Position numbers and translations under genes: made by a program. The notes below the pieces were generated by a model that was not told the origin of the DNA, did not search any database, and worked only from the letters and a program-made list of their open reading frames with translations. A DNA stretch of 48,941 nt. It comes from a virus (Duplodnaviria; Heunggongvirae; Uroviricota; Caudoviricetes). This document shows positions 3,953 through 48,941 of this stretch, one piece after another. Within the stretch, counting starts at the first letter, position 1, and every line of letters begins with the position of its first letter. The stretch lies in IMG/VR virus record IMGVR_UViG_2802429253_000004; one strand, written 5' to 3'.

Positions 3953-3955
3953 GCT

Positions 3956-4072
3956 TATAGAATTATATAATTATAGATTTATATAAAAAGTGCTTTACAG
4001 GTGGGAAAAAATTTCCTATGGTTATACCCGAAACCGAGCGATACCCGCCCTGGTTAAACCGGAGATAACCCG
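3956..4072 (+). promoter_or_regulatory. Promoter/leader cassette, copy A (AT-rich iterons, -35 TTTACA, 17-bp spacer, -10 TATGGT, conserved ~45-nt leader with GGAG ribosome-binding site)
   Basis: Near-identical to 13991..14118 and 20858..20974; each copy ends at the ATG of a different gene. Confidence 0.6.
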
Positions 4073-4453
4073 ATGAGCATGATTAAAATCCGCAAAAACG
4101 CTTTCCTTAAAATTCAAACTATCCTGGCTGGTTCTGTTGGCGTGATTTGCCGTTCTTCCTCAAGCCGCATCGATGACTGCTACGATGATGAGTATCGTGT
4201 GTCCTCATGCGATGAGGCTTTAACCTGGCTGAAGGAGAATCAGGAACGTGCCCAGGTATATCTGGAAACAGAGAACGGCAATCAGATGCTGCGTATTAGC
4301 GGTCGTTATGGATTTGAAACTACATTCATGGCCTATTTTAATCAGGCTTACTTTGACAAGGAGTTGGCCTGGTACACTGATCGCATGAGCAAAAGCGAGC
4401 CAGCCCCGATTACACCGCCGAACAATAAACCATTTTTATTCCTCGTTAAGTAA
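4073..4453 (+). CDS. Hypothetical protein driven by cassette copy A
   Basis: 126-aa ORF whose ATG directly follows the conserved leader. Confidence 0.5.
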   Translation: MSMIKIRKNAFLKIQTILAGSVGVICRSSSSRIDDCYDDEYRVSSCDEALTWLKENQERAQVYLETENGNQMLRISGRYGFETTFMAYFNQAYFDKELAWYTDRMSKSEPAPITPPNNKPFLFLVK

Positions 4454-6060: not shown

Positions 6061-6070
6061 GAATTGAAGA

Positions 6071-6096
6071 AGCGCCCAAATCGGGCGCTTTGTTTT
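6071..6096. terminator. Bidirectional intrinsic terminator between convergent genes
   Basis: Stem AGCGCCC/GGGCGCT with a T-rich tail on the plus strand and a U-rich tail on the minus strand. Confidence 0.65.
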
Positions 6097-7237
6097 ATGG
6101 TTTTGCACCTGCGGCCAGTTTATCCGCAGATATTTTTATCAGTTCCTGTAGTGTCCTGGCTGGCAGGTTTGCATCCAGAACGCTGAGTATGCTGTTGTGA
6201 TCAGCCTGGTCGACTACTTTGCCTGTCGGTGGTAGTAGCTTGAGCTGAGGATTCAGGTTTTCGTCAAAGCTGATAAGTGCTCTGGCGTTTCTGAGCAGAT
6301 CAAGAAGTAAGGCTGATATCACATCATCTTTAGTCATTGTTGGTAGATTTAGTGCCGCTTTAGTTTTCTCCGTCGCCTTGTCAAACTCTTTGATTAGTGT
6401 CTTGCGGTAGTTTGGTTCTGTTAATAGCCGATGATGTTCTGTTGCCGTTCGGATAATCTTTGTTTCCTGATACAGTCGGTTGTATAGCATTCGCTCGTAT
6501 TCTGCCTTTAACACGCTGCTGATAGCGTTAAAGGCTTCAATGTAGGCCAGCTTGATATCCTTCACGCCTGGACCGTCGATACTTTCCATGAGCAAGGTAA
6601 ATCCGTCTTTTGTCATGCGATAGATTGTTATTTCGCGGTCGCTTCCTTCCAGCGGTCGTTGCTCTTTAAAGAAATGACGCGCCGCAGCCGTGCGAGGAAT
6701 GCGTAATGCATCGATGGCCATTACGATGGAATTGTTTGTGGTGCTGAATGCTTGGGCAACATCGGCTGAGGTTGTGAGTGGCTCGTTGTTGCACACCTTA
6801 ATGTAATACATCGGTTTGGCATTGAGTGTATCGACAACCTCACGAGCATTGTTTGGCGAGACGGTTACGGTCGCGGCCGTTTGCGCGTTCTGGTTGAAGT
6901 AGCAGTCTTCCAGCCGTTCGAATACATCCCACGCCTGATCGGTTTCGAGCATTTTAGCGTGACGTGCAGCCCCGCGTTCGGTCCAGAGGATGAGTTTTCT
7001 AACGTTATTCGCGATGGTTTGAAAATCTCTTAAAGAGATTTTCAAACTTTGGAGATCTGTACCTTTTACAACTATGAAATGTTTTCCTTCTGTAAACCGG
7101 GACTTATTACGGTGGTGATTTCTGTGAAGACATTCGACGCTACAGCCATATAGTTTGGCAAGCAGCTCCGTGGTGATAACGGGGAGCTGGTTATGCAGGA
7201 TAGGCTGTAGGGTGTTAACGGTCGGAAGCGTTTTCAT
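6095..7237 (-). CDS. Antirepressor-like regulator with ORF6N-type N-terminal domain and Rha domain
   Basis: 380 aa; N-terminal segment ending LWTERGAARHAKMLETDQAWDVFERL, central Rha-like segment ITIYRMTKDGFTLLMESIDGPGVKDIKLAYIEAFNAI. Confidence 0.7.
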   Translation of the reverse strand: MKTLPTVNTLQPILHNQLPVITTELLAKLYGCSVECLHRNHHRNKSRFTEGKHFIVVKGTDLQSLKISLRDFQTIANNVRKLILWTERGAARHAKMLETDQAWDVFERLEDCYFNQNAQTAATVTVSPNNAREVVDTLNAKPMYYIKVCNNEPLTTSADVAQAFSTTNNSIVMAIDALRIPRTAAARHFFKEQRPLEGSDREITIYRMTKDGFTLLMESIDGPGVKDIKLAYIEAFNAISSVLKAEYERMLYNRLYQETKIIRTATEHHRLLTEPNYRKTLIKEFDKATEKTKAALNLPTMTKDDVISALLLDLLRNARALISFDENLNPQLKLLPPTGKVVDQADHNSILSVLDANLPARTLQELIKISADKLAAGAKP

Positions 7238-7425: not shown

Positions 7426-7587
7426 TGTGATGATTCCCTTAAAGGTTAAGGATACTCACCACCGTCAGGTTCCAATCATTGGGTGGTGAGACGTGCAGGG
7501 TTGGAACTACCGGACACAATGACGAACCGGCGAGTCTTACGACTCCCCCGCACGCCCCACCATAATTTGGGTGTAGCAGTGCTTTAC

Positions 7588-7612
7588 GCATAAAAAAACC
7601 GCTAACGCGGTA
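7588..7612 (-). terminator. Intrinsic terminator on the minus strand within the leader of the antirepressor operon (3' end of a candidate small RNA or attenuator)
   Basis: Minus-strand hairpin ACCGCG..GCGGT followed by TTTTTTT; mutually exclusive pairing segments upstream (TCTACGG / CCGTAGA / CTACGG at 7626..7663). Confidence 0.4.
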
Positions 7613-7875
7613 TGCGCCATTGTGTCTACGGGGTTCCAATCCCGACCGTAGATTTTGCTACGGCTCGGAAAGTGTCCACCAATGGCGCATTCATGTCAAT
7701 ACGGCGGGATTTTAACAGAGGCAACCACATAGCGTGGGTTTGAATGCAGGGCTTTTAATTTTCTTGATATGCTAAGAACGGGAATGTATAGTTCCTGTAA
7801 GGAACAAATCAGTCCTAAATTGTGATGTTTTGTTAAAGTTGGGAACAAGAAAAAAATTTATTATGGGGATAAAAA

Positions 7876-8415: not shown

Positions 8416-8834
8416 TGAGTGAAGAAACAAAAAAACCGCCCTATTGAGGACGGTTCTTTCGTGCTGATCGGATTCGCAGTCCTTTCAGCATAACGTCGTT
8501 GTATAAATACAACCACGCAAGCACAAACAGCGTTCTTATTCTTACCTAACTGAATAAAATTGTCCAAATAAATTTGGTTTATTAGAGCACAAAAGCAAGT
8601 GATATTTTGTAATATGCGGTTAAGTCAATGAAAAACAATATTTTTTTATCCCTTCATTATGAAGGGGCGGCGGCGTAACATTACGCGGGGCCTTTTCGCC
8701 GATTCGCACCCGGGCACCGACTTTCAGGAAAGGATTATCCAACCGCCGTACCACGCAGGCACAAACAGCGTGCTTGCTCTCGCGTCATTTTCGTCGGTGG
8801 AGATGCCGTGGAACGGCCTGCGAGGGCCAATACA

Positions 8835-8954
8835 ATGAGGAAATACGTATGTATTTTGATCGTTGTTACTGGAGCTTTGTTTACGCCACATGGGGAGGGT
8901 TGGAAGATTACTGATAACGCTCTGAATGTGACGATAAACATTAGCAGCAAGTAG
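8835..8954 (+). CDS. Candidate 39-aa hydrophobic peptide (MRKYVCILIVVTGALFTPHGEGWKITDNALNVTINISSK)
   Basis: GAGGG ribosome-binding site 8 nt upstream; strong intrinsic terminator immediately downstream; no homolog recognised. Confidence 0.3.
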   Translation: MRKYVCILIVVTGALFTPHGEGWKITDNALNVTINISSK

Positions 8955-8959
8955 CGATT

Positions 8960-8982
8960 AGGCCCCTTCGGGGGCCTTTTTT
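8960..8982 (+). terminator. Strong rho-independent terminator
   Basis: Stem AGGCCCC/GGGGCCT with loop TTCG, then TTTTTT. Confidence 0.8.
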
Positions 8983-9204: not shown

Positions 9205-9453
9205 TTACTTCTGGTTGTATTGAGCCTTGAGTAACTCAAAAGATTTTGTCAGCACTTCTTTCAATGACATATCCATTGAGCTGGCGAATGTTTTGTACTC
9301 ACGTTTAAATTCAGGGTCGACGTTAAACGCCATTTGTGCTCCACCTGATTTGGTTCTGGTCGGCGTTTCAGTCGGGTCGAAAACCTGCGGTTGTTCGATT
9401 GATGGCGGTACGCCTTTGCTGTTCTTCTTTGGTGGTTTTGATGGTGCGGCCAT
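9205..9453 (-). CDS. Small partition protein, ribbon-helix-helix ParG-like centromere-binding protein
   Basis: 82 aa directly downstream of parA; unstructured basic N-terminus then an RHH-like segment MAFNVDPEFKREYKTFASSMDMSLKEVL. Confidence 0.6.
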   Translation of the reverse strand: MAAPSKPPKKNSKGVPPSIEQPQVFDPTETPTRTKSGGAQMAFNVDPEFKREYKTFASSMDMSLKEVLTKSFELLKAQYNQK

Positions 9454-9465
9454 GTGTATCCCCTC

Positions 9466-9497
9466 TTATATAAATCTATAAAACTATAATTATATAT
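9466..9497. repeat. AT-rich 15-bp iteron pair (TATAGAWTTATATAA family, inverted orientation) downstream of the partition operon
   Basis: TATATAAATCTATA and AAACTATAATTATATA; same motif family as at 3956, 10172, 10246, 13991, 15218, 19728 and 20858. Confidence 0.7.
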
Positions 9498-10165
9498 TAC
9501 GCGGCAGTAGTCAGAGCCTCAAGCTGGTTGATAATCCCCTGAATAACGTCGTCTGCCTTTTTGCGTGGCGCAACGTATGAACACTCAATGAGGCTTAAGC
9601 CCTTATCCTGAGCTTTGCTCAGAGCTGGCTTGTGGGGAATGTACTTATCGACAACAAAGTATGGCGTATTAGCCAGGTACTCTTGGGCTTCGATGTAGTC
9701 AGCTTCGTTTTCAGCCGCGCCGGAAAACACCATGCAAATTTTCTTGATTGGTACACCCTTTTTAACGATGCCGTGAGCTGTGTTAACGGTGGTTTCCAGG
9801 TCATCGGTAGAGAATCTGGTTGGCAAAATAACCATATCCAGAAATTCAGAGAGCTTCGGTACTGATTCAGATGCGTAGGCACCGCCATCGACGATAACCA
9901 GGTCGTATACTTCTGATTCGATGATTTTCTGGACTTGTGATGGTGTGCCGCACGGCTGCGCCGCGATTGCTGGTTCGATATTGTTGGCCATTCTGCGTTG
10001 TACCCAACGCGTTACCGTTCCGTTAAGCACATCCATATCGATCAGGCATACATTCCAGCCAGCCTTTGCATAAGCAACTGCTAAAGCACGAGCAATGGTT
10101 GATTTGGTTACGCCGCCTTTTCCGTTGAAAATACCTACAGATATAGTCATTTGTCGAGACTCCAT
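9497..10165 (-). CDS. parA: Partition ATPase ParA, small type Ib (ParF/Soj-like)
   Basis: 222 aa; deviant Walker A GKGGVTKST near the N-terminus. Confidence 0.85.
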   Translation of the reverse strand: MESRQMTISVGIFNGKGGVTKSTIARALAVAYAKAGWNVCLIDMDVLNGTVTRWVQRRMANNIEPAIAAQPCGTPSQVQKIIESEVYDLVIVDGGAYASESVPKLSEFLDMVILPTRFSTDDLETTVNTAHGIVKKGVPIKKICMVFSGAAENEADYIEAQEYLANTPYFVVDKYIPHKPALSKAQDKGLSLIECSYVAPRKKADDVIQGIINQLEALTTAA

Positions 10166-10171
10166 ATGTTT

Positions 10172-10277
10172 GATTATATAATTCTATAAATCTATATTTA
10201 TAGAATGAGGTAAGCATAACCAACTTTTTGGCGGATGAAAAGTGTTTTATATAATTATATAAATCTATAATCATATA
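10172..10277. repeat. Two blocks of AT-rich iterons immediately upstream of parA (candidate centromere/operator)
   Basis: Blocks 10172..10207 and 10246..10277 each carry two or three copies of the 15-bp unit in both orientations. Confidence 0.7.
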
Positions 10278-10300
10278 AGCGGGCGTTAGCCCGCTTGCAG

Positions 10301-10767: not shown

Positions 10768-11424
10768 TCATAACCAGTTGACAACACTAACTACGCGGCC
10801 AAGAACTTTATAACGCTTAAATTCCTCGTTATTCAGATGCTTAGTGTTCATTTCAGCATCCCTTTCGGTTGACAGCATAACAGCATTGTCACCCGGTATG
10901 ACTCTACAGTGCCTCAAAACAACCAGGCCATTTCTGTCTTCAAGGGCATAGATCCCCTCATGAATCTCTGTATCGTCTGTATTAATCAGGACTTGGGAGC
11001 CTGGGGATATTGTTGGTGACATTAACTCATCGTTGCTCTGGAGAACTGACAGAGACGATGGGTTGATGTTCTTGCTTCGTAGAATCTCCTGTTCTATCGC
11101 CAGCACTGGCTTTTCTCCGGCGTGCGATGCTATGTCATTTTTTATAGCTACAAGCCCAGGAATAACAGGAGCGTTAGTATTCTGGGGTGGGAACGGGTTA
11201 TCTGTTAAGCACGCGATATAAGGCGCTGATGCTTTCAGGGCGTGCGCGATTTTCTTGATGGCAGGTATAGATGGTTGTCTTAATCCGGCCTCATAGTTCT
11301 GCAAGGTGCTTAAGCCTATTCCAGTGACTTGCTGGAGATCTCCGGCAGTCATGCCGGATTGTTTCCGTAGAGTCTGAATGCGCAGACCTATTTCTTTCTT
11401 GATGTTCTCGTCGTTGCTTTTCAT
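10768..11424 (-). CDS. CI-like phage repressor (N-terminal HTH, C-terminal S24 LexA-like peptidase domain)
   Basis: 218 aa; HTH at residues about 15-60, C-terminal autopeptidase-like domain; divergent from a cro-like gene. Confidence 0.85.
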   Translation of the reverse strand: MKSNDENIKKEIGLRIQTLRKQSGMTAGDLQQVTGIGLSTLQNYEAGLRQPSIPAIKKIAHALKASAPYIACLTDNPFPPQNTNAPVIPGLVAIKNDIASHAGEKPVLAIEQEILRSKNINPSSLSVLQSNDELMSPTISPGSQVLINTDDTEIHEGIYALEDRNGLVVLRHCRVIPGDNAVMLSTERDAEMNTKHLNNEEFKRYKVLGRVVSVVNWL

Positions 11425-11462: not shown

Positions 11463-11579
11463 CCACATTTAGTGGTTTTCACATGGTAAGACGAGAGGTG
11501 GACCACAAATAGAAGGTTATTTTTTGTTTCGCCCATTGAAAAACTCACGATATGTGGTTTTAATACCACATATCGTGGT
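11463..11579. promoter_or_regulatory. Divergent cI/cro promoter region with at least two full operators (ACCACATTTAGTGGT at 11463..11477, ACCACATATCGTGGT at 11565..11579) and a half-site
   Basis: Repeated ACCAC-N5-GTGGT dyads in the 175-bp intergenic region; larger palindrome CACGATATGTGGTTTTAATACCACATATCGTG. Confidence 0.6.
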
Positions 11580-13571: not shown

Positions 13572-13949
13572 GTGAGACGCGATCTGGATAGCTTGTTTGA
13601 GCTATGGGCGCTGTGGGTGCGCAATGGCTGCAACGCCCGTAGCGGTTTCGCGTCGATGTTAGAAATGATGATGGTTACGCGCTGCCAGTTTACCGGAGGG
13701 GGCGGCGCACCAAATGACTCACTGGAAACCAGTATCGAGGGAGCGGTGACGGCCCTCACGGTAGTTGATGAGACTGCGGCGCTGGTTGTCCGAATTGAAT
13801 ACGGGGCGTGGGAGATTCGGGGCCTCGACATAAATGCACCGCATATTGATAAAGCCCACGCCCTTTCTCTTAGTCTCAGACAGTATCGCCGGAAGCTGGC
13901 AAAAGCCAGGACGTATGTTGTCGACTACTTGAAAAAGAGAAGAGAGTGA
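13572..13949 (+). CDS. Putative antitermination protein Q-like late regulator
   Basis: 125 aa; N-terminal LFELWALWVRNGCNARSGFASML resembles small Q-type antiterminators; last gene before a promoter cassette; GTG start. Confidence 0.45.
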   Translation: MRRDLDSLFELWALWVRNGCNARSGFASMLEMMMVTRCQFTGGGGAPNDSLETSIEGAVTALTVVDETAALVVRIEYGAWEIRGLDINAPHIDKAHALSLSLRQYRRKLAKARTYVVDYLKKRRE

Positions 13950-13990: not shown

Positions 13991-14118
13991 GAATATCGGA
14001 AATCTATAAATATATAATTATAGATTTATATAAAAAGTGCTTTACAGGTGGGAAAAAATTTCCTAAGGTTATACCCGAAACCGAGCGATACCCGCCCTGG
14101 TTAAACCGGAGAAATCTG
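13991..14118 (+). promoter_or_regulatory. Promoter/leader cassette, copy B
   Basis: Near-identical to 3956..4072 and 20858..20974; directly downstream of the Q-like gene. Confidence 0.6.
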
Positions 14119-15186
14119 ATGAATAAACAAGTAATTATTTCTGACTGGATCAACAACCCTAACAGCCTGTTGAGCACTGATACTGGCTATAGATTACGTC
14201 ATGTTAATGGCCGTATGGTCAAAAGCGATGAGCACGAAACCTTTTTCGTTGTTGAAGACGATGGACGTCTTTATGAGGATGGTCACTCTTATGAATCCCA
14301 AACAGGTTGTATCCCTGCGGAGTTGGTAGACGTAACAGAAAAGCTGCGCAAAGCATGGCTTGAACAGCAGCAGCGCGGAGATGATTACGTAAATACCTAT
14401 CAGGAACGCCAGAACGCGCGTCTTGCCCGATATATTGCTCGTGCAGAAAAAGCTAGAAAAGAAGGTGCGGTGGCGCATAAGCGAGCGCATGAACTGTTGG
14501 ATGTGATCCCGTTAGGCCAGCCGATTTTAGTTGACCATTATAGCGCGAAAGGCCATCGCCGCCGTTTGTCTAAAGCTGATGCGTTATTCAGAAAATCGTT
14601 TGTTGAGTGTGAAAGCAGAGCATCGTACTACGAAAGCAAAGCCGCAGGTGTCGGCCGTAATGGAGTTTCGTCTGATGATCCTGATGCGCTATTTAAGTTG
14701 CTTCGTAAGCTGCAAGGCTGCATGAAGTCACACATCAAAATGAAGGCCGCAAATAAGGCTATTCGCAAATACAAAAAAGACCAATTACAGCAGCTTTCCG
14801 CATTAATTGACCTTGAGTTTACTGAAAGCGAAGCCAAAGAGTTACTCGCCGGAGATTTCTGTGGGCACATTGGCTTTCCTTCATACTCACTGAGTAACAA
14901 TAACGCCGAAATCAAACGCCTACAGAGCCGTATTAAAGAGCTTGAATCGGTCAAGTCTGTAACAGGATCACAGCGCGAAGAATACGACGGCTTTTCTATG
15001 GAGGTAGATCCAGAGGATAACCGCATCCTGTTTTATTTCCCTGGCAAACCAGAGGCAAACATTCGTTCGCTGCTTAAATCACGCGCCTTTAAGTGGAGTC
15101 CAACCCGTAATGCATGGGTTCGCAAGATTACTCCAAACGCCCTGGCTGATGCCCGATATCTGAAAGAATCGCTATTGAAAGCCTGA
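14119..15186 (+). CDS. Hypothetical 355-aa protein, first gene after cassette copy B
   Basis: Long ORF with basic, coiled-coil-like central region; function not recognised. Confidence 0.6.
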   Translation: MNKQVIISDWINNPNSLLSTDTGYRLRHVNGRMVKSDEHETFFVVEDDGRLYEDGHSYESQTGCIPAELVDVTEKLRKAWLEQQQRGDDYVNTYQERQNARLARYIARAEKARKEGAVAHKRAHELLDVIPLGQPILVDHYSAKGHRRRLSKADALFRKSFVECESRASYYESKAAGVGRNGVSSDDPDALFKLLRKLQGCMKSHIKMKAANKAIRKYKKDQLQQLSALIDLEFTESEAKELLAGDFCGHIGFPSYSLSNNNAEIKRLQSRIKELESVKSVTGSQREEYDGFSMEVDPEDNRILFYFPGKPEANIRSLLKSRAFKWSPTRNAWVRKITPNALADARYLKESLLKA

Positions 15187-15242
15187 CAGTAAGCCTACGG
15201 CGGGATGTCTCCCGCCGTATATAGAATTATATATTTATATAA

Positions 15243-15545
15243 ATGTATAAGGACGCCTCGACAATGAAACGCAAAATTATTAACCCCCAAGATGTGATTA
15301 ATTTCCTGACCGATCACCCATGTTCAAAAGTGGACGTAATCGCGGAGCACATTGGTGTGTCGCAGAACTCTATGCGTTGCAGACTGAGAAGCATGGTTGC
15401 CGAAGGACAGATAACAACCAGGAAAATAAATGGTTGCCTGTACTACTCCGCTAAACCGGAATTGCCATTTGGCATGAATCCTAACTCCATGTTGTTTAAC
15501 ACCTTATTAGCCAAAGTTAAGCCGTTGAGAGGGGCTGTGGCATGA
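15243..15545 (+). CDS. Small winged-helix-like DNA-binding protein
   Basis: Segment DVIAEHIGVSQNSMRCRLRSMVAEGQI is HTH-like; start uncertain (15243 or 15264). Confidence 0.45.
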   Translation: MYKDASTMKRKIINPQDVINFLTDHPCSKVDVIAEHIGVSQNSMRCRLRSMVAEGQITTRKINGCLYYSAKPELPFGMNPNSMLFNTLLAKVKPLRGAVA

Positions 15546-15907
15546 GCATCAAAACCCATACCGGAATAATCATCACCATTGATGGTGAGAAAAAAGTGAA
15601 GTTACGCGAAACGCCGACAACCTGGTGTGTTGGTCCGAAAGAAACATATCGCAAGGAAGATGGGCGCCGTTGTGGGTCGCCACTTTCCAGCCGTCGCCTC
15701 CTTTTGAGCACGATAAAACCTATCGGGCAGGTTGAGCAACCAACGACTCCGGTAACGAAGATTTCAGACAAGAGTCTGGCAAACCTGATCGCCGATGCGG
15801 ACAAGGTGCTGGAGCGAAACACCCCCGTTGCAGATGAGGAATGGTGGCAGGATTTCCGAGCCGCAATGCTAGAGCTTCAGGAACGTCGTCGGGAGGAGTT
15901 GAAGTGA
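15542..15907 (+). CDS. Hypothetical protein
   Basis: 121-aa ORF with overlapping start and stop in the operon. Confidence 0.45.
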   Translation: MSIKTHTGIIITIDGEKKVKLRETPTTWCVGPKETYRKEDGRRCGSPLSSRRLLLSTIKPIGQVEQPTTPVTKISDKSLANLIADADKVLERNTPVADEEWWQDFRAAMLELQERRREELK

Positions 15908-16152
15908 GTGGATCAAATTGTCGAATTAATGGCAATCGAATAGAGCCGTGTGCTGCATTGGCAAAGTCTCTTGAGCACGATGCTGAATGCTCAGTAAGAA
16001 AAGGCTTACTGCTATACAAAATCTGGAATGAGAGTTTAACCCGTGGACCTGATTTGGTGATGTTGCGTTCCGGTGAGTTTTCTAAATCACCTATTCGAGT
16101 CTCATTTTGCCCGTTTTGTGGTGAAAGTCTGAAAACGTGGGAGGGAGAGTGA
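15904..16152 (+). CDS. Small Cys-rich (zinc-ribbon-like) protein
   Basis: GTG start overlapping the upstream stop; Cys pairs CxxxxxxxxC and CPFC. Confidence 0.4.
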   Translation: MSGSNCRINGNRIEPCAALAKSLEHDAECSVRKGLLLYKIWNESLTRGPDLVMLRSGEFSKSPIRVSFCPFCGESLKTWEGE

Positions 16153-16163
16153 AAGAGCGCGGC

Positions 16164-16769
16164 ATGATTTTTAACGATGAGATGGTCCGGGCCATCCTCG
16201 AAGGAAGGAAAACGCAGACTCGCCGACCTGTAAAAAATGTCAGGGCCGATAACTGCCTGGTTATCCGTAAACCGACAAAGAAACGCAATGGTGTCTATAC
16301 CCACGTTATGGATGCACCGGAACATGGTTTATGCCCGTTCGGTAACGTTGGTGATCGCATATGGGTACGTGAGACATTCAACGCTTTTTGGCTGGATGAC
16401 GATGTTATTCAGGAAATCAAAGATGGTGTCTCTCTGGCTTCTGAGCTGTGTGATTACAAGGCTGATTACTCAGATAGTAGCAAACCATCTGAGGGCTGGA
16501 CCCCGTCAATTCTCATGCCGAGATGGGCATCGCGAATTTTGCTGGAAATTACCGACGTGCGTGTGGAGCGGCTGCATGACATGAGCGAGGCAGATGCCAA
16601 AGCGGAAGGCGCATCTCCGGCAACGTACAAGATTACGCCGCCGGAAGCTGTTTATCGTGTTGGTTTTGGTGATATCTGGCGCGGTATTTACGGGCAAGAG
16701 AACTGGCTATCTAACCCGTGGGTATGGGTAATTGAGTTTAAACGTATTCAGGGGGCAACCAGTGAGTAA
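16164..16769 (+). CDS. Phage protein, possibly ASCH/PUA-like
   Basis: N-terminal MIFNDEMVRAILEGRKTQTRRPV is a signature recalled from prophage ASCH-like proteins; unverified. Confidence 0.4.
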   Translation: MIFNDEMVRAILEGRKTQTRRPVKNVRADNCLVIRKPTKKRNGVYTHVMDAPEHGLCPFGNVGDRIWVRETFNAFWLDDDVIQEIKDGVSLASELCDYKADYSDSSKPSEGWTPSILMPRWASRILLEITDVRVERLHDMSEADAKAEGASPATYKITPPEAVYRVGFGDIWRGIYGQENWLSNPWVWVIEFKRIQGATSE

Positions 16770-17019
16770 TTCCGCACGGCTACAGCTTGGTTTTTCACCG
16801 CTATCAAAAACCATCGTGTTGGCCAAAATGCGCGATTTAGGTGACGGAACAAAACGCCGTGTAGGCAATGATCGCGGTCGTGATGTAACCAACGAGGCCG
16901 CACAACTCGTTTGGCATCTTGTCATGGCAGAAGGCGGTGAAATCAATTGGGAGCTGGATGATGGTTCTCGCATGGTGTTAAGGGCAGAAAAGCAGGGGGC
17001 AAACGATGAAAAACCGTAA
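16762..17019 (+). CDS. Hypothetical protein
   Basis: GTG start overlapping the upstream stop; 85 aa. Confidence 0.35.
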   Translation: MSNSARLQLGFSPLSKTIVLAKMRDLGDGTKRRVGNDRGRDVTNEAAQLVWHLVMAEGGEINWELDDGSRMVLRAEKQGANDEKP

Positions 17020-17197
17020 AGCAAAGATGCTTATTTCCCGTGTATACAGACGTTGCTATCCCAGCCAGTGGTTGAGAGTTAGCAATCGCCGTGTGGTGTT
17101 GTACTTATATTCTGGAATTGCCAGAGAGGGAGTCAAAGATAAGCGTAGCGCGGCGCAAAACCGCTGGAAAAACTACTTGCGCACTAAAGGAGAGTGA
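17006..17197 (+). CDS. Hypothetical small basic protein
   Basis: 63-aa ORF; weak support. Confidence 0.25.
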   Translation: MKNRKAKMLISRVYRRCYPSQWLRVSNRRVVLYLYSGIAREGVKDKRSAAQNRWKNYLRTKGE

Positions 17198-17255
17198 GGT
17201 GCCTACACTATTCAGGAAGCTACACAATAAAATTAACCCACATAAGGAAACAGAT

Positions 17256-17642
17256 ATGGCAACTATTACCAGAGAAAGCGCAGAGATTAAATCATTCATC
17301 ACTGGCTTTCTGAGCGATGCGGCGCACGATAAACAATCTTCAAACAGTCTGCTTGCTAATGTGTTTCGTATCGCGCTGGCATCGCTGGAAGCAGAGCCGA
17401 TAGCGTGGGAATGCGGTGAAAACATAATCCTGTTTAACCCTGACACAGTTGAAGCATACGCAAAACGTGCGGAGATATCACCTAAACCACTATATGCCGC
17501 GCCGCCAGTTCCGGAAATGCAGGCTGATGTCGCGCAAGCAATTGAAAATCTCAAGCAGAAGTTAGTGGAATGCAATCGCTATAACTACTGCGCAGATGCA
17601 GTTAAGGGCGTAGAGGATGCCTGCCACGCCGCCATGCTTTAG
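17256..17642 (+). CDS. Hypothetical protein
   Basis: 128 aa from the ATG at 17256 with an upstream AAGGAAA ribosome-binding site. Confidence 0.45.
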   Translation: MATITRESAEIKSFITGFLSDAAHDKQSSNSLLANVFRIALASLEAEPIAWECGENIILFNPDTVEAYAKRAEISPKPLYAAPPVPEMQADVAQAIENLKQKLVECNRYNYCADAVKGVEDACHAAML

Positions 17643-17658
17643 GGGAAAGGGAAGTGAT

Positions 17659-17934
17659 ATGGCTACTTTTACCAAAGAGCAATTGATTGCCCATATTCGT
17701 GAACGTAAGGAAGCGCGCCAGAGAATGTTGGATACGGTAACTATTAACCCCGGATTTCGTGAATATCTTGAAAGAGAGCTTGCTACAGATGAAATTGCAC
17801 TGGCATCCCTGGCATCTGCACCTGTTGCATGGCTAGTTGGAGGGCGTTTGTTCACAACTGAGATAGCTGCGGGGATGTATGCTAGTGAGGTGAGGAAAGC
17901 AGTTAAGCCGCTATTCTTTTCTGCACTACTGTGA
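17659..17934 (+). CDS. Hypothetical protein
   Basis: 91 aa from the ATG at 17659 with a GGGAAAGGGAAG ribosome-binding site. Confidence 0.45.
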   Translation: MATFTKEQLIAHIRERKEARQRMLDTVTINPGFREYLERELATDEIALASLASAPVAWLVGGRLFTTEIAAGMYASEVRKAVKPLFFSALL

Positions 17935-18079
17935 GTATTGTTTTTTTATTGATCGATTGACCACATTTTGAAGGTTTTTTTATGGGAAAACCTTGTTTTA
18001 GGTGGTAACTGGGTGTAGTGTTTCATTTAACGTAGTAAAACTGCGTTAAGCGATTACCGCGTAATTTGTTGCTTTATGA

Positions 18080-18109
18080 AGCCCTGCCTTTTCGGCGGGG
18101 CTTTTTTTT
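18080..18109 (+). terminator. Strong intrinsic terminator immediately upstream of the lysis cassette
   Basis: 9-bp stem AGCCCTGCC/GGCGGGGCT with loop TTTTC, then an 8-nt T-run. Confidence 0.7.
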
Positions 18110-18122
18110 AACGAGGATTTCA

Positions 18123-18518
18123 ATGTCAGCAGAACCAATTTCCGGTACGGCCGTTGCTGCTGGTGGCCTGATGGGTGCCAGCGTTTTTGGTATTGCAACT
18201 GGTATTGATTACGGCGTTGTATTCGGGGCATTTGCTGGCGCTGTTTTCTATGTTGCTACAGCGGTGAATATTAGCCGTCTCAAGCTGATTGGCTATTTCT
18301 TTACATCGTTCATTGTTGGAGTGATTGGAGCGCCGTTAGTTGGCTCATTTCTTGCCAAATGGACCAGCTACAACGATCGACCTCTTGATGCGCTTGGTGC
18401 GGTTATTGTGGCTGCATTGACCATTAAAATCCTCACGTTCGTAAACAGCCAGGATCTCGGTAGCATCTTTGGAATGCTTTCCCGCTTACGTGGAGGGGGT
18501 TCAAATGGTAAGCAGTGA
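18123..18518 (+). CDS. Holin-like membrane protein
   Basis: 131 aa with several hydrophobic helices; first gene of the lysis cassette. Confidence 0.55.
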   Translation: MSAEPISGTAVAAGGLMGASVFGIATGIDYGVVFGAFAGAVFYVATAVNISRLKLIGYFFTSFIVGVIGAPLVGSFLAKWTSYNDRPLDALGAVIVAALTIKILTFVNSQDLGSIFGMLSRLRGGGSNGKQ

Positions 18519-19605: not shown

Positions 19606-19729
19606 TACCGCCTGTGATTGGGTAAAGCCCATCTACCTGACTGATCACGACATCGATGTTATGGACCGCCAGACAAAGAAAGATATTCTGGCTCATAACA
19701 GGGCATGGGAAATCAACTGCCAAAAGTAA
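19520..19729 (+). CDS. Spanin outer-membrane lipoprotein subunit (Rz1/LysC-like), nested in an alternate frame
   Basis: Signal peptide with lipobox LIASC; overlaps the 3' end of the i-spanin gene out of frame. Confidence 0.5.
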   Translation: MYSRVLTIWLMTMLIASCGSRGSVPVVVDTACDWVKPIYLTDHDIDVMDRQTKKDILAHNRAWEINCQK

Positions 19730-19890
19730 TATATATTTCTATAAATATATAGTTACAACATTCTATACGCTTTTCTCATGAGCGCACGCATCAACCATGT
19801 TTGTCTGATATGCCGCCGCGCCCAAAAATCCTGAATTTATTGGCTGGGATTTTCGTGCGCGGCGCCACACCAGACAAACAAATCAAATAT

Positions 19891-19966
19891 GGCCCCTTAG
19901 CTCAGTGGTTAGAGCAGGCGACTCATAATCGCACGGTCACTGGTTCAAGTCCGGTAGGGGCCACCA
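19891..19966 (+). tRNA. tRNA with CAU anticodon (tRNA-Met, or tRNA-Ile2 if lysidine-modified)
   Basis: 76-nt cloverleaf: acceptor GGCCCCT/AGGGGCC, D-arm GCTC-AGTGGTTA-GAGC, anticodon loop CTCATAA, T-arm ACTGG-TTCAAGT-CCGGT, encoded CCA. Confidence 0.85.
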
Positions 19967-20274: not shown

Positions 20275-20862
20275 ATGGAGGCAATTGTATTGTTTAATCT
20301 GATTTATGCAGATCCCCCCTGGGAATACAAAGACAAGTGTAAGGATGGGAATCGTGGCGCTGGTTTTAAGTATCCAACGATGAAAGCTGAGGAGATTGCT
20401 CGTATTCCTGTCTGGCAGCTTGCTAATCCTGAATCGTGTTTGTTGGCTATGTGGTGGGTTCCGACTCAGCCAGAAGAAGCGTTGCTGGTGGTGAAAGCAT
20501 GGGGATTCAGGCTTATGACCATGAAGGGCTTCACATGGAACAAATGTGGTAGCCGACAGCCAGACAAGCTGGTGATGGGGATGGGACATATGACTCGTGC
20601 AAACAGTGAAGATTGCTTGTTTGCGGTAAAAGGCAAATTACCGACACGTCTTGATGCGGGGATCATTCAGTCGTTTACATCGCCTCGTCTGGAGCATTCT
20701 CGGAAGCCTGATGTGGTCCGTGACAAACTGGTAAAGCTGTTAGGCGATGTTCCTCGTATTGAGCTGTTTGCTCGCGGTGATTTACCTGCTGGCTGGCATG
20801 GCTGGGGCAACCAGTGCAACGGAGGTATCCAGTTGCATGATGCTCTCTGGCAAGTGTCATAG
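20275..20862 (+). CDS. MT-A70-family N6-adenine DNA methyltransferase
   Basis: DPPW catalytic motif (IYADPPWEY) near the N-terminus; 195 aa; no adjacent restriction endonuclease. Confidence 0.8.
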   Translation: MEAIVLFNLIYADPPWEYKDKCKDGNRGAGFKYPTMKAEEIARIPVWQLANPESCLLAMWWVPTQPEEALLVVKAWGFRLMTMKGFTWNKCGSRQPDKLVMGMGHMTRANSEDCLFAVKGKLPTRLDAGIIQSFTSPRLEHSRKPDVVRDKLVKLLGDVPRIELFARGDLPAGWHGWGNQCNGGIQLHDALWQVS

Positions 20863-20974
20863 AATTATATAATTATAGATTTATATAAAAAGTGCTTTAC
20901 AGGTGGGAAAAATTTTCCTAAGGTTATACCCGAAACCGAGCGATACCCGCCCTGGTTAAACCGGAGATAACCCG
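20858..20974 (+). promoter_or_regulatory. Promoter/leader cassette, copy C
   Basis: Near-identical to copies A and B; ends at the ATG at 20975. Confidence 0.6.
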
Positions 20975-21196
20975 ATGAAAGAACAAGACCGTAAAGTAAT
21001 GCGTATTTCCTTCAAACGTGCGACTGAGCAGCAACGCAAAGAGTTCCTGGCTGATGATGTAGCGGCCGTTTATGACCTCATGAAAGAGGTTGTGGAATCA
21101 GGGAACTACACGGCGGCAAAGATGCTTAAACTGCAATTCTTGCTGGGCGACCTGAAATACAAATCCGAAGTTGTCGCCGGACGACGCGAGCATTAA
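20975..21196 (+). CDS. Hypothetical 73-aa protein driven by cassette copy C
   Basis: ORF directly after the conserved leader; terminator downstream. Confidence 0.45.
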   Translation: MKEQDRKVMRISFKRATEQQRKEFLADDVAAVYDLMKEVVESGNYTAAKMLKLQFLLGDLKYKSEVVAGRREH

Positions 21197-21216: not shown

Positions 21217-21246
21217 CGAGCCTCGGCAATTGCCGGGGCTTTTTTA
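21217..21246 (+). terminator. Rho-independent terminator
   Basis: GC-rich hairpin (GCCTCGGCAATTGCCGGGGC) followed by TTTTTT. Confidence 0.6.
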
Positions 21247-22112: not shown

Positions 22113-22826
22113 ATGATGCATTTAAAAAATATTAGTGCGCCGCTTATTGATCCCCGTGGCAAACATCCAGATGTGCTACCGCTTTTTACTGAAGACGGAA
22201 GAGATTGGTATGAGGAACAGAAGAAATTTCAGCCTCATACTTTAAAGATTGCGTATGACAATAACGGCATTATCCGCAGTGTATCGAAGGATGTATCGTT
22301 GCTTTGCCCGGATGGGATGAGTGTTATTGAGTTACCTGATACTGATGAGTATCGAAAAGTAGATAACACAGGTGATTGGCTCGTCAAAGATGTTCAAATT
22401 GTGAAGCGTGAAGGTACAGAGCACCGAGAAAACTCACTGATATCTATTGGTGCCGAGGCTGTTCCGTTTAAGTTTGAATTATCCCAACTGGTAACAATGC
22501 GTATCAGTGACGAATGGGGAGAAGTTCAAGCCCGTGCTCAGTATGCAAATGGCGAAAACCAGTATCTGATTCACTATCAGGCGGCTGATGGCCGTGCTAC
22601 TACAGAGTGGTTCTGTGAGTCGATGCTGATTGCGATGGAGGATAAACGTCATCCTGGCTGTCCTGTTTTTGCTTGTATTGATCTGCCAGAAGGCGCGGTA
22701 CTTGAAGACGACAAAGAAGAATGGTCGCCTGATGGCGAACTTGTCATTACCGGAATCGTGGATGGTAAGCCGAGATACTCTCGCATTGAGGTAAATAACG
22801 GCCACATCTGTTTGATACCAGAGTAA
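22113..22826 (+). CDS. Tail fiber assembly (Tfa)-like N-terminal domain fused to an uncharacterised C-terminal domain
   Basis: N-terminal ~110 aa align with the Tfa proteins at 46836..47369 and 47398..47925 (MMHLKNI..WYEEQ..FQP.TLK..YD.NG.I); C-terminal ~125 aa unrelated to them. Confidence 0.6.
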   Translation: MMHLKNISAPLIDPRGKHPDVLPLFTEDGRDWYEEQKKFQPHTLKIAYDNNGIIRSVSKDVSLLCPDGMSVIELPDTDEYRKVDNTGDWLVKDVQIVKREGTEHRENSLISIGAEAVPFKFELSQLVTMRISDEWGEVQARAQYANGENQYLIHYQAADGRATTEWFCESMLIAMEDKRHPGCPVFACIDLPEGAVLEDDKEEWSPDGELVITGIVDGKPRYSRIEVNNGHICLIPE

Positions 22827-23060: not shown

Positions 23061-23684
23061 ATGACAAAACATCTTAATGTGGTTTCTTTACCACTTTCTG
23101 TGTTGATTGGTTATGAAAAGAACGCTCGCACACACTCCGTGGAGCAGGTAGATCAGATTGTTGCCAGCATACAGGAGTACGGATGGACTAATCCGATCCT
23201 GATAGACGAAAACAACGTTGTAATTGCTGGTCATGGTCGAATTGCTGCGGCCACTCAGTTGGGGATGGATGATGTTCCCTGCATTGTTCTGGAAGGGCTA
23301 ACGGAGAATCAGAAGAAGGCATATCGTCTGGCCGACAACCGTATTCCGCTGAATGCTGGTTGGGATGAAGAGTTGTTAAGCGCGGAGCTTGCAGATCTTG
23401 CGGCCGATGATTTTGCTCTGGACTCAATTGGTTTTACTCAGCGCGAACTGGATAACTTATTGAGTGCGGCGGTCTACGATGACACAGAGGGTATGGATAT
23501 CCCATTTGAGAAGGATGAGGCCAAATCAGGCGTAAAAGTTCAGTACCTGTCATTTGGAGGTCATAAAATCCCGGCAACGGATGAGGAAGCGGATCGTTTT
23601 GACTGCGCGGTGTCTCGTTATGTTGATGATAATGGCAGCTATATCGGATTTGTATCCGCATTGCTGGCTGGGGAGGTGTGCTGA
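23061..23684 (+). CDS. ParB N-terminal (ParB/Srx nuclease-like) domain protein
   Basis: Conserved ParB-N segment VIAGHGRIAAATQLGMDDVPCIVL; paralog of 26351..26941. Confidence 0.7.
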   Translation: MTKHLNVVSLPLSVLIGYEKNARTHSVEQVDQIVASIQEYGWTNPILIDENNVVIAGHGRIAAATQLGMDDVPCIVLEGLTENQKKAYRLADNRIPLNAGWDEELLSAELADLAADDFALDSIGFTQRELDNLLSAAVYDDTEGMDIPFEKDEAKSGVKVQYLSFGGHKIPATDEEADRFDCAVSRYVDDNGSYIGFVSALLAGEVC

Positions 23685-25057
23685 TGCTTCACCTGAATTA
23701 CGACATAACGCACCTACGCGGCGCGGAATATAACCCGCGTTTTATCGGTGAGGATGATCTTGCGAGGCTGGCTGAAAGCGTCAGGGAGCTGGGGCTTGTG
23801 AAGCCATTGATAGTGCGCGGCGATTTGCTGGTGGCGGGACACCAAAGGACGAAGGCGCTACGTAAGTTGGGAATAACGCGTGCTGCGGTGTATGTGTTGC
23901 CCTGTGAAACGACGGTATACGACGAAGTTCGGTTTAACCAACTGCATAACGGAACGGATTTTGATAGCGGAGATGAGCGTTGCAGGGTGTCCGGTCTGGA
24001 AGATAAGCATGGTTTTGTTCAGGTATCGGCAAGCCAGATCTCAGGCAATATGCGCGCGAAAATGGCATATGTTCGAAAGAACATAGCGGAACTGGTTATC
24101 AAGTATGGTCCGTGGGGTGGTTGTGTTGCTACTCAGTCTGGCGAGGTTATTCACTGTGCTCAGTATGCATTAGCAGCGAAGATGACGCGCACACCGCTAA
24201 CGGTGTTTGTGATCCCTGATGTTGAGAAGGAAAAATACCAAAGTTATCTGAATAAAACTTATGGTGTATTTGAGTATTCTCATCTGGAGAAAACAACATA
24301 CATCCAGACGTATGCGCAGCTTATGCGGTTGCGTAATGGTGGCAGCCTGAAATCAAACCTGTATGAGTCGTTGATCCTCCCGATCATTGCCAAGACGCCA
24401 AGAGGAATTGATTTTGGTTCGGGGCAGGGAGACTACGCGCGAATGCTCAGGGCAAAGGGGTATAACCTGCATGATCTTGAGCTTTTCCGCCGTAAGGGCG
24501 CAGGAAACACTCTGGATAGGGCTGCAACAAACCGAATGATTGATACGCTGGTGGACGACTTAAAAACGCGAGGGCGTTACGACTACGTGATTTGCGATAG
24601 CGTTTTGAACTCGGTCGATAGTGTCGAGGCTGAATGGTCCGTTCTGACGGTTCTGAAAGGCCTGTGTAAAGCTGGTGGGTCAATATTCTTTTCTGGCCGT
24701 AGCCGTGGAGAGCTGGAGAGTGTGCTTAAACGAACGCAAGCTGCTAGCTCTATAAGTCGGCTTTATTTTATTGACCATAACGGTTTTTCTGCTTTGTACC
24801 GGAAGGGACACTGGTTTTATCAGAAGTTTCATTCTGATGAGGAAGTGAAGCAATTGTGCCGTGAGCATAGCTTCAGAATAAAGCGGTCGGTATTTAACGG
24901 TAAGAGCTGGTATTTGCACGTTATTAACGATGATTCTCTTCGCTGGGAGAGTCTGGAGAAAGCTGTTCGTTTTGAGTTTGAGTTGCCGTTGCCTGGTGGT
25001 TCAACAATCGGACGATCTGATGATGTGTTGGCGGCTTTCCGGCCGTTGATTAAGTAG
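23684..25057 (+). CDS. ParB-N domain fused to a class I SAM-dependent methyltransferase domain
   Basis: N-terminal ParB-like segment (LVAGHQRTKALRKLGI), C-terminal methyltransferase motif I IDFGSGQGDY and post-I acidic motif YVICDSVL; start placed at the ATG at 23684 (ORF open from 23678). Confidence 0.65.
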   Translation: MLHLNYDITHLRGAEYNPRFIGEDDLARLAESVRELGLVKPLIVRGDLLVAGHQRTKALRKLGITRAAVYVLPCETTVYDEVRFNQLHNGTDFDSGDERCRVSGLEDKHGFVQVSASQISGNMRAKMAYVRKNIAELVIKYGPWGGCVATQSGEVIHCAQYALAAKMTRTPLTVFVIPDVEKEKYQSYLNKTYGVFEYSHLEKTTYIQTYAQLMRLRNGGSLKSNLYESLILPIIAKTPRGIDFGSGQGDYARMLRAKGYNLHDLELFRRKGAGNTLDRAATNRMIDTLVDDLKTRGRYDYVICDSVLNSVDSVEAEWSVLTVLKGLCKAGGSIFFSGRSRGELESVLKRTQAASSISRLYFIDHNGFSALYRKGHWFYQKFHSDEEVKQLCREHSFRIKRSVFNGKSWYLHVINDDSLRWESLEKAVRFEFELPLPGGSTIGRSDDVLAAFRPLIK

Positions 25058-26350: not shown

Positions 26351-26941
26351 ATGGCTCTAAAAATCGAATATTTACCAGTCGGTAAGCTGCTCAGATACGC
26401 CAAAAATTCACGGACTCATTCAGATGAGCAAGTTGAACAGTTGGTGAACAGTATCCGTGAGTTCGGTTTCACTAATCCTGTGCTGATCGATGAAAAGAAT
26501 GAACTGATTGCGGGGCATGGGCGGCTTGCAGCAGCCGAAATTCTGGAAATGGATAAAGTTCCAGCGATTCGGTTGAGTAACCTTTCTGAAAAACAGAAGA
26601 AGGCTTACAGGATTGCAGATAACAAGCTGGCCTTAAATGCTGGCTGGGATATGCAGCTTCTGGCCGAAGAAGTCAAAGCGTTAATGGATGATGATTTTGA
26701 TATTGATCTGCTTGGGTTTAATGATGCAGAGCTTGACGAAATGTTAAGCGATGAACAGCCGCAGGAAGAAGACGATAATTCTTCCCCTGTTGTTCAAATT
26801 AAGTACCTGGCTATTGATAAAGAACGTATTCCCGCGACGGATATGGAAATTGCATTGTTGCTGGATGTTTATCGTCAGTACCACGACGCGCATGAAACTC
26901 ATGAGGGATTTGTTCAGTATCTTGCTAATGGTTGCAAGTAA
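26351..26941 (+). CDS. ParB N-terminal domain protein immediately upstream of the terminase genes
   Basis: Paralog of 23061..23684 (LIAGHGRLAAAEILEMDKVPAIRL); acidic C-terminal half. Confidence 0.7.
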   Translation: MALKIEYLPVGKLLRYAKNSRTHSDEQVEQLVNSIREFGFTNPVLIDEKNELIAGHGRLAAAEILEMDKVPAIRLSNLSEKQKKAYRIADNKLALNAGWDMQLLAEEVKALMDDDFDIDLLGFNDAELDEMLSDEQPQEEDDNSSPVVQIKYLAIDKERIPATDMEIALLLDVYRQYHDAHETHEGFVQYLANGCK

Positions 26942-46833: not shown

Positions 46834-46835
46834 CG

Positions 46836-47369: not shown

Positions 47370-47397
47370 GAGAAGGCCCGCTATCGGGCCTTAATTT

Positions 47398-47925: not shown

Positions 47926-47928
47926 AAT

Positions 47929-48816: not shown

Positions 48817-48833
48817 ACCGAGGTTTTTGCGAA
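48807..48833. promoter_or_regulatory. gix/cix-like recombination site (inverted partner of 46112..46137)
   Basis: Reverse complement TTCGCAAAAACCTCGGTTTGCAGGAAA shares the ACCTCGGTTT core and dyad arms with the site in the fiber gene. Confidence 0.75.
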
Positions 48834-48941
48834 TTGCCTCTGTATCGTCTGAACGATATTTTTTCCCGCTTTTAGCAACAATCGCGGTTTAGAAAGTATG
48901 CAATATGGTTATGCGAGAGTGTCAACTTTTGACCAGAATTT

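Follow-up and report, generated by a model that had tools for sequence, protein, structure and literature searches.

A nine-gene block between a Q-like gene and the lysis cassette of a circular Caudoviricetes element, with a constant head and a variable tail

Gene and signal layout of the block

We analysed a block of nine genes, here g1 to g9, at positions 14119-17934 of IMG/VR record IMGVR_UViG_2802429253_000004, a 48,941-nt stretch of a Caudoviricetes virus that is called the window throughout. The block lies between a gene for a Q-like protein and the lysis cassette, and an earlier note, made from the letters of the window alone, had described it as an operon of uncharacterised proteins in the classical moron position of lambdoid phages and as the most likely place for an undescribed accessory system, plausibly for anti-defence or host takeover. 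The window is a complete circular element of ~48.8 kb, its terminal 127 nt being duplicated (1-127, 48815-48941), and by gene content it is a phage-plasmid and not an integrating lambdoid phage, because it carries RepA, ParA, a RelE/ParE-type toxin and a C4 RNA together with Ant, and has no integrase. The block and its surroundings contain the following features:

13572-13949, + strand: Q-like gene, 125 aa, last gene of the early-right operon
14004-14123, + strand: promoter cassette copy B, ending in the ribosome-binding site (RBS) and ATG of g1
14119-15186, + strand: g1, 355 aa, DUF3560
15199-15249, + strand: g1-g2 spacer, a hairpin followed by an AT-rich array
15264-15545, + strand: g2, 93 aa, basic winged-helix protein
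15542-15907, + strand: g3, 121 aa, two-part protein
15904-16152, + strand: g4, 82 aa, GTG start, Cys-rich and zinc-ribbon-like
16149-16769, + strand: g5, ~206 aa (alternative ATG at 16164), ASCH/PUA-like
16762-17019, + strand: g6, 85 aa, GTG start, DUF7446
17006-17197, + strand: g7, 63 aa, very basic
17199-17642, + strand: g8, 147 aa, or 128 aa from the ATG at 17256
17659-17934, + strand: g9, 91 aa
17942-18047, + strand: conserved non-coding element of 106 nt between g9 and the terminator
18078-18109, + strand: intrinsic terminator, 13 nt ahead of the holin ATG (18123) and the first one downstream of g9
18123-18518, + strand: holin, first gene of the lysis cassette (PF16931, 2.6e-37; phrog_198)

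The nine open reading frames (ORFs) lie tightly packed on the + strand of 14119-17934, with starts refined from Shine-Dalgarno sites, 4-nt ATGA or GTGA overlaps and the annotation of relatives, and with intergenic distances from g1 to g9 of, in order, +77, -4, -4, -4, -8, -14, +1 and +16 nt. All nine products are matched by PHROG families (E 1e-22 to 4e-229) and none of the seven antisense ORFs in the block (97-201 aa) has a PHROG-type family match, which argues that the nine genes are real and that their packing, with overlapping starts and stops, is as the earlier note described it. An Rfam scan of the block found no RNA family inside it.

The cassette in front of g1 is one of three copies of a 120-nt sequence (A, 3957-4076; B, 14004-14123; C, 20859-20978) that are 90-98% identical, each of which extends into the RBS and ATG of the gene downstream and heads a rightward operon. 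Copy B consists of four 8-bp AT-rich units (14002-14033), the hexamer TTTACA (14041-14046), a 17-nt spacer, the hexamer TAAGGT (14064-14069) with a -10-like TATACC directly 3' of it, a leader of ~45 nt and finally the RBS and ATG. Copy A reaches the cut-off of our sigma-70 scan (TTTACA-17-TATGGT, nine of 12 matches), and copies B and C are one match under it. The cassette was found 5' of g1 in all relatives of a comparison set of 20, made up of 11 phage or plasmid relatives and nine viral contigs, and its hexamers and spacing are preserved in a relative from E. cloacae. From this arrangement we infer promoter activity for cassette B. Its leader folds weakly (z -0.9 for copy B, -2.6 to -3.6 for copies A and C), and the exact leader sequence occurs in 21 IMG/VR stretches with at most three copies per contig.

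At the other end, the terminator has an 11-bp stem with seven G-C pairs (18078-18104) and a T run reaching 18109; the E. cloacae relative has, at the same position, a hairpin of unlike sequence with a T9 run. The limits that the earlier note had given to the block, cassette copy B at its start and a strong terminator just before the holin, are therefore retained (14004-14123 and 18078-18109). No terminator was found on the + strand between 13949 and 14119. The genes g4-g9 overlap or abut, and no promoter-like or terminator-like site lies between them on the + strand, save one weak terminator-like hairpin inside g5 (16714-16729; six pairs, three of them G-C). A promoter and a terminator are thus found only for the nine genes taken together, and the two belong to the conserved core. 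The g1-g2 spacer holds the hairpin GGCGGGA-tgtc-TCCCGCC (15199-15216), which has no U tract, and an array of 8-bp units (15218-15249) that repeats the cassette motif with two mismatches.

Between g9 and the terminator, the non-coding element at 17942-18047 is kept at 98% identity in close relatives and at 84% in the E. cloacae phage-plasmid despite differing flanking genes. It holds two inverted repeats, TTGATCGATTRA and TTAACG-N11-CGTTAA, and the stretch 17935-18125 folds with z = -4.3. The element goes with the lysis module, for which it may be a late-promoter or regulator-binding region. An 8-codon ORF within it (17981-18007) was rejected as a gene, its ATG not being kept in relatives.

The 125-aa product of the upstream gene had no match in a single-sequence Pfam scan and has only 31 close homologues, and a profile search of 1.8 billion representatives raised this to 130 relatives, 107 of which were aligned into a family profile. 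Nine of these 107 members match PF06530 (Phage_antitermQ, best E 1e-4), and others match ECF-sigma or sigma region 4 models. Searched against the PDB, the 107-sequence profile found the Q protein of phage 21 (6jnx/6p18) at E 2.7e-5 over profile positions 4-92. An AF2 model (pLDDT 77, residues 21-47 poorly modelled) also had Q21 as its best Foldseek match, with a probability of 0.85, a TM score of ~0.5 and an E-value of ~0.5 that is not significant, next to sigma region 4 at probabilities of 0.9-0.96. The gene is present in 19 of the 20 relatives and is missing only from a 6.5-kb stretch (L036) that ends just 5' of g1. Family profile, PF06530 members and Foldseek match speak for the designation Q-like, and the best, still unproven, reading of the protein is a putative, distant antiterminator of the Q21 type. 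The layout of the genome would be compatible with such a role, as cassette B leads to the terminator at 18078 ~4 kb further on and cassette C to that at 21218-21241.

Conservation and exchange among relatives

The window is ~97% identical to the Yersinia phages vB_YpM_39/41/44 and also matches dozens of circular 47-52-kb 'plasmids' of E. coli, E. albertii, E. fergusonii and Klebsiella aerogenes. In RefSeq one of these, pEA32_4, is annotated with RepA, ParA, a RelE/ParE toxin with a helix-turn-helix (HTH) partner and a myovirus structural module, and with no integrase; all eight close plasmid relatives examined with MOB-suite were non-mobilizable and without a relaxase.

Across this family the nine genes behave very differently. 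The Q-like gene, the cassette, g1, g2 and g3 occur in essentially all relatives, at 94-100% amino acid identity in the close ones, where g2 is 100% identical in 11 of 11 and g3 96-100% identical in 11 of 11. Three diverged lineages keep g1 at 66-70% and g2 at 49-62% identity, and of g3 the N half alone (66-79%), which forms a stand-alone 68-aa gene in the E. cloacae relative; likewise, only the g3 N half is matched in the relatives L022 and L028. The gene g5 takes a middle position: it is present in all 11 close relatives, missing from the diverged lineages, and divided into two allele classes (95-98% and 72-74% identity) by a segment of ~130 nt inside the gene (16372-16503) that is swapped in half of the relatives. 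As far as these alleles tell, the swap shows recombination within a gene besides that at gene boundaries.

The remaining genes come and go independently. Among the 20 relatives, g4 was found in four, g6 in seven and g9 in two (98-100% identity), g7 occurs sporadically (~5 relatives at ≥90% identity, plus diverged alleles), and g8 is full length in none. Breakpoints of the mosaic DNA fall at gene ends (15908, 16149, 16752, 17197, 17619, 17934). Coverage of the block stayed below 80% in every one of 551 plasmids and 1789 E. coli records, and segments of its cargo are found in 1611 of 5426 complete E. coli genomes. In Salmonella phage 29485 such a segment follows erf and abc in the early-left ea region, and in the prophage Rac-SA53 it lies downstream of the replication genes in a nin-like early region; in relatives, neighbouring cargo alleles are annotated ead/Ea22-like. 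A comparison across relatives, which the earlier note had suggested, thus leaves only g1-g2-g3 travelling together, joined by g5 in close relatives.

In the E. cloacae phage-plasmid (L013), g1 and g2 are separated by two inserted genes, one DndB-like and one of 107 aa. The DndB-like protein (L013 8145-9203 on contig ABDOLQ020000021.1; 352 aa; PF14072, 2.8e-46) is encoded directly 3' of the DUF3560 gene, and by its family this phage-borne copy of a regulator of phosphorothioate modification genes is a candidate for counter-defence cargo.

Predicted products and possible roles of the block

The first product belongs to DUF3560 (PF12083), which it matches with 108.2 bits against a cut-off of 27.2 over profile positions 2-124 of 124, passing the gathering threshold; nearly all of its 391 homologues carry PF12083 too. 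The N terminus of g1 forms a beta domain of ~90 aa, which is an addition to the family core of ~265 aa; a long helical bundle follows, and the C-terminal domain is of the alpha/beta type. Many Arg and Lys residues are invariant in the family, and H140, S142, R147, S184 and D187 are invariant too. Some DUF3560 homologues (~405 aa) are fused to ArdcN (PF08401), the N-terminal domain of ArdC that binds single-stranded DNA (ssDNA), and some database records name g1 homologues 'ArdC' or 'antirestriction protein'. In g1 itself Pfam recognised DUF3560 alone and no ArdcN, no protease family was found in Pfam or NCBIfam and no HExxH in the sequence. We therefore rejected g1 as an ArdC antirestriction protein, since the ArdcN and the metalloprotease domain are both absent; unlike in ArdC, its first ~90 residues form an unrelated beta domain. 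An HD-hydrolase label that appears in UniProt names (PMC11541004 supplement) was likewise set aside, as fold and family searches give it no support.

The family of g1 is characteristic of the leading regions of conjugative plasmids. A Yersinia IncFII plasmid has a g1 homologue, 55% identical over the full length, in its leading region, where ssb-parB-psiB-psiA lie on one side of the gene and the SLT-traM end on the other; another homologue, on a PromA plasmid, lies near repB (primase), ssb and kfrA. DUF3560 is also listed in the leading region of pO157 (PMC11125564), and Samuel et al. 2024 report it as an uncharacterised leading-region family with 1,913 members (PMC11541004 supplement). In the leading region of the F plasmid (48-68 kb), tblastn found none of g1-g9 and the g1 family profile found no member either, and g2-g9 were not found beside plasmid DUF3560 genes. 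Our literature search found nothing functional on DUF3560, DUF7446, DUF4014 or PA0613.

The small products g2-g4 match catalogued families. The second product matches phrog_1687 ('MarR family', 5e-32), with weak Pfam matches to FaeA, HTH_24 and TrmB and a weak one to phrog_142, a Ren-like exclusion protein (E 0.002). The two halves of g3 match different families, the N half phrog_1226 and the C half phrog_14672. The fourth product (phrog_4030, 8.5e-37) is 86% identical to rac21 of Rac-SA53, and the two have C6, C16, C69 and C72 in common (CX9C...CX2C). Among the earlier descriptions, those of a 355-aa, a winged-helix-like and a Cys-rich product agree with DUF3560, phrog_1687 and the four conserved Cys.

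The ASCH-like character proposed for g5 (phrog_874, 3.6e-84) is putative. ASCH domains have an N-terminal signature of the GxKxxExR type, and g5 has a variant, GxKTxTRR (G-R-K-T-Q-T-R-R), which is invariant or nearly so in 22 homologues; a few of its ≥8000 homologues are named 'ASCH domain-containing protein' by RefSeq. The Pfam match to ASCH (PF04266) aligns residues 136-161 with 17.5 bits (E 0.0068), below the cut-off of 21.2, and neither the single sequence nor the family profile of g5 matched any solved structure, solved ASCH structures included.

The sixth product is a DUF7446 protein (PF24233, 5.2e-17) whose counterpart in the early-left ea region of Salmonella phage 29485 is 81% identical, and g7 (pI 11.2; phrog_1380, 6.6e-32) has a 97% nucleotide match in phiV10 and O157 typing phages. 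The last two products are distant paralogues (29% identity, E 2e-6), g8 with matches to phrog_14306/660/5117/60 and g9 to phrog_5117 (1.9e-22). The DNA of g8 overlaps genes of phage D6 annotated DUF4014 and ead/Ea22-like, and g8 and g9 are tied to ead/Ea22-like proteins solely in that their DNA overlaps genes of phages D6 and PhiR41_1 that carry this annotation; neither has an NCBIfam match or BLASTP similarity to lambda Ea22.

NCBIfam gave nothing usable for any of the nine products. PADLOC, which covers defence systems only, had no match at E ≤ 0.01 for the nine products and the Q-like protein, and scans with the general libraries Pfam, NCBIfam and PHROG gave no anti-defence annotation for g1-g9. 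Homology searches assigned no product to a replication or morphogenesis family, so that the products stay as uncharacterised as the earlier note had called them.

Taken with the pattern of conservation, this makes it probable that the block is an accessory-gene hotspot of a phage-plasmid, composed of a fixed head and an exchanged tail of small genes and not of a single multi-gene machine, because the parts of one machine would co-occur and these do not. The head g1-g2-g3 always stands behind the Q-like gene and cassette B, and recombination at the borders of genes would swap the members of the tail (g4 and g6-g9, with g5 semi-fixed) singly between this element and prophages of the lambdoid and P1-like kinds. 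The whole block would be transcribed rightward from the sigma-70-type promoter of the cassette, probably also fed by read-through from the early-right operon, with translation coupled through overlapping stop and start codons. RNA polymerase would stop at the terminator before the holin (18078-18109) except where the Q-like factor has modified it to resist termination, and the block would therefore be made before the lysis genes and independently of them. The head may act on DNA or on regulation during cell entry and establishment, with g1 as a DNA-binding establishment factor or one of an anti-restriction type, like its relatives in plasmid leading regions, and the cargo genes may each be dispensable and modulate host physiology, defence or the choice between lysis and lysogeny, like their ea, nin and exo-xis kin. 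A role in entry, establishment or anti-defence is plausible only by association.

Several points weigh against this interpretation. The -10 hexamer of cassette B, TAAGGT, scores below the scan threshold, the array adjoining the -35 hexamer could make the promoter repressible, and the hairpin and array in the g1-g2 spacer could split the transcription unit. As for g1, it carries neither ArdC domain by Pfam, its link to the best-studied leading region exists at the level of the Pfam family only, and its comparison with solved structures, by single sequence and by profile, gave no significant relative. Finally, the conserved set g1-g2-g3, perhaps with g5, could be a functional module that was not recognised as such.

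In its topology the block is a lambdoid Q-to-lysis cargo position, and in its gene content it is of the ea/nin type with one plasmid leading-region family added; it is an ordinary hypervariable cargo region whose gene families are already catalogued as unknowns. Like the Q-to-lysis region of lambdoid and Stx phages, it shows a Q-type gene, a promoter, cargo and then a terminator and holin, and it is hypervariable among close relatives. Unlike that region (Q - pR' - tR' - cargo - S), it has its terminator after and not before the cargo, its promoter and leader are one of three cassettes, its cargo has no promoters or terminators of its own, three of its genes are fixed, and its host element is a phage-plasmid and not an integrating lambdoid phage. 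With the ea, exo-xis and nin regions of lambda, P22 and Rac it has in common homologues of g4, g6, g7 and g8 (82-97% nucleotide identity), some of them beside genes annotated ead/Ea22-like, a gene-by-gene mosaicism and a mix of small basic, Cys-rich and coiled-coil proteins, but it differs from them in lying downstream of the Q-like gene. DUF3560 and strings of small, co-oriented uncharacterised genes recall the anti-defence islands of conjugative-plasmid leading regions (PMC11541004), whereas relatives of the window are non-mobilizable, with no relaxase or oriT, and no ssb, psiB, ardA or ssDNA promoter was found in the block.

The moron position claimed earlier is accordingly genuine insofar as the block lies between Q and lysis genes, in an element that is a phage-plasmid. 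Taken singly, the genes do not qualify as classical morons: each lacks a promoter and terminator of its own, and their lambdoid homologues reside in ea and nin regions and not between Q and S. The genes g4 and g6-g9 do lie between genes that are adjacent in relatives, as morons do, and g1-g3 do not; the GC content of the block (0.44-0.50, against 0.36-0.51 across the genome) shows no compositional contrast of the kind looked for in morons.

The proposal of a coherent, undescribed system for anti-defence or host takeover, in which all nine genes would cooperate, now appears very unlikely. It would agree with the tight translational coupling, the single promoter and single terminator, with the enrichment of the g1 family where plasmids keep anti-defence genes, and with the DndB-like gene in the same slot of a relative; however, six of the nine genes sort independently in the 20 relatives whereas the parts of a system normally co-occur, the exact gene set occurs nowhere else among the 551 plasmids and 1789 E. 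coli records, and PADLOC and NCBIfam gave no matches. What speaks for an anti-defence role is thus an association, that of the g1 family with leading regions. Equally little is to be expected of a block expressed in the plasmid-prophage state from a constitutive pR'-like promoter and serving superinfection exclusion or defence, that is, lysogenic conversion. From the cassette promoter to 18078 there is no terminator, so that the block would be transcribed without need of the Q-like factor; the position is one at which lambdoid phages have their conversion genes, and g2 has its weak match to the Ren-like phrog_142. Against this, PADLOC matched no product, the AT-rich arrays beside the promoter suggest regulation and not constitutive firing, and the g1 family is tied to incoming DNA and not to resident elements.

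An ordinary lytic module for DNA replication or recombination, in which the head g1-g3 (perhaps with g5) would continue the Ref-nuclease and DUF1064 resolvase genes upstream and g1 would act in priming or origin binding, seems improbable. Residues 174-351 of g1 match phrog_19458, labelled 'primase', at 1.6e-36, the genes immediately upstream have recombination functions, the early-right operon has no other recognisable lytic replication genes, and the PromA homologue is found in the company of a primase gene. Yet the name 'primase' comes from the annotation of one family only, no primase, helicase or polymerase domain was found in g1 by Pfam, NCBIfam or PDB searches, the plasmid members of its family lie in leading or establishment regions and not at replication origins, and the element has its own RepA. 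That the block instead consists mainly of modulators of lysis-lysogeny and host physiology, like those of lambdoid exo-xis and nin regions, which would tune induction or establishment with no part in counter-defence, is also unlikely. Here the cargo homologues in ea and nin-like regions and the neighbouring alleles annotated ead/Ea22-like in relatives are favourable, and exo-xis genes including Ea22 are known to affect lysogenisation and induction (PMC7093339, PMC3824215), but g1-g9 show no pairwise similarity to lambda Ea22, Ea8.5, orf61, orf63 or orf60a, and g8 and g9 match no NCBIfam model.

Less remote, and still on the unlikely side, is the idea that g1-g2-g3, which at least three diverged lineages of the phage-plasmid group retain, are a module for establishment or anti-defence that has not been described before. 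If true, the key component of this module would be common to phage-plasmids and to the first-transferred genes of conjugative plasmids, the module would bind the DNA as it comes in and either protect it from a host barrier or turn that barrier off, and the slots downstream would collect more counter-defence cargo, such as the DndB-like gene of the relative. Returning to the accessory-gene hotspot, three to four fixed genes are now set apart from the exchanged ones, and deletion and expression screens can therefore target the fixed set. DUF3560, which is among the larger uncharacterised leading-region families, here heads a conserved operon in an inducible and manipulable phage-plasmid, which would be a tractable system for its function.

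Possible antitermination units, arrays and other features of the element

Terminators were located at 6069-6091, 18078-18109 and 21218-21241. Cassette C is followed by a 73-aa ORF and then by the strong terminator at 21218-21241, before the packaging and structural genes. Together, the three cassettes and the Q21-like protein look like three pR'/tR'-type antitermination units in one genome, a layout that may exceed the accessory block in interest. The whole window is thus given another frame, that of a phage-plasmid with RepA and ParA, a putative regulator of the Q21 type and three promoter cassettes, and this side of its biology is probably of greater interest. Further features of the element are:

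820-1800 and 9497-10165 (- strand): replication/partition loci of the phage-plasmid, RepA and ParA
9205-9453, - strand: candidate ParA partner, 82 aa
10301-10675, - strand: 124-aa protein
3955-3986, 9466-9497, 10174-10205, 10247-10278, 14002-14033, 15218-15249, 19729-19760, 20857-20888: AT-rich arrays
7479-7567 and 7592-7664, - strand: C4 antisense RNA and isrK-like RNA (Rfam; C4 78 bits)
6095-7237, - strand: Ant/Rha-type antirepressor, 380 aa, downstream of the C4/isrK RNAs

The AT-rich arrays are built of 8-bp units (TTATAGAA TTATATAA TTATAGAT TTATATAA), with 11 matches to a 21-nt core against 0 expected. They flank parA, sit 5' of the -35 hexamer in all three cassettes and also lie between g1 and g2. 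These arrays could serve in partition, as centromere sites, and at the same time as operators for the small ParA partner; omega of pSM19035 and the dispersed Sop sites of N15, which affect late gene expression, would be parallels.

By sequence, the C4 RNA, the isrK-like RNA and Ant are an immI immunity module of the P1/P7 type; the 380-aa ORF at 6095-7237 (- strand) was considered as an integrase and rejected, being the antirepressor. A CI-like HTH/S24 repressor (10768-11424, - strand) accompanies this module, and between its gene and the first early-right gene lies a palindrome (11545-11578) with perfect 14-bp arms (TCACGATATGTGGT...ACCACATATCGTGA), which is probably the main operator and was also scored as a bidirectional terminator by the scan. 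Our literature search found no paper describing this phage-plasmid family and nothing on the Yersinia phages vB_YpM_39/41/44. The pSLy3 group was rejected as the group of this phage-plasmid, pSLy3 being SSU5-like.

Elsewhere in the window, the ryfA RNA family has a full-length match at 8686-8982 (+ strand; 124 bits, E 3e-31) between an HTH gene and the partition genes. The lysis genes are followed by a tRNA-Met and an MT-A70 DNA methyltransferase (19891-19966 and 20275-20862), and three proteins with ParB/Srx N-terminal domains are encoded beside the terminase genes (within 23061-25057 and 26351-26941). A Hin-type invertase adjoins oppositely oriented tail-fibre and assembly genes (84-638, 44764-48816), an invertible host-range segment. 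In addition, a 93-nt repeat (22181-22273, 46919-47011) has three occurrences within the tail-fibre gene, and a second, partial homologue of the tail-fibre-assembly gene lies at 22113-22826.

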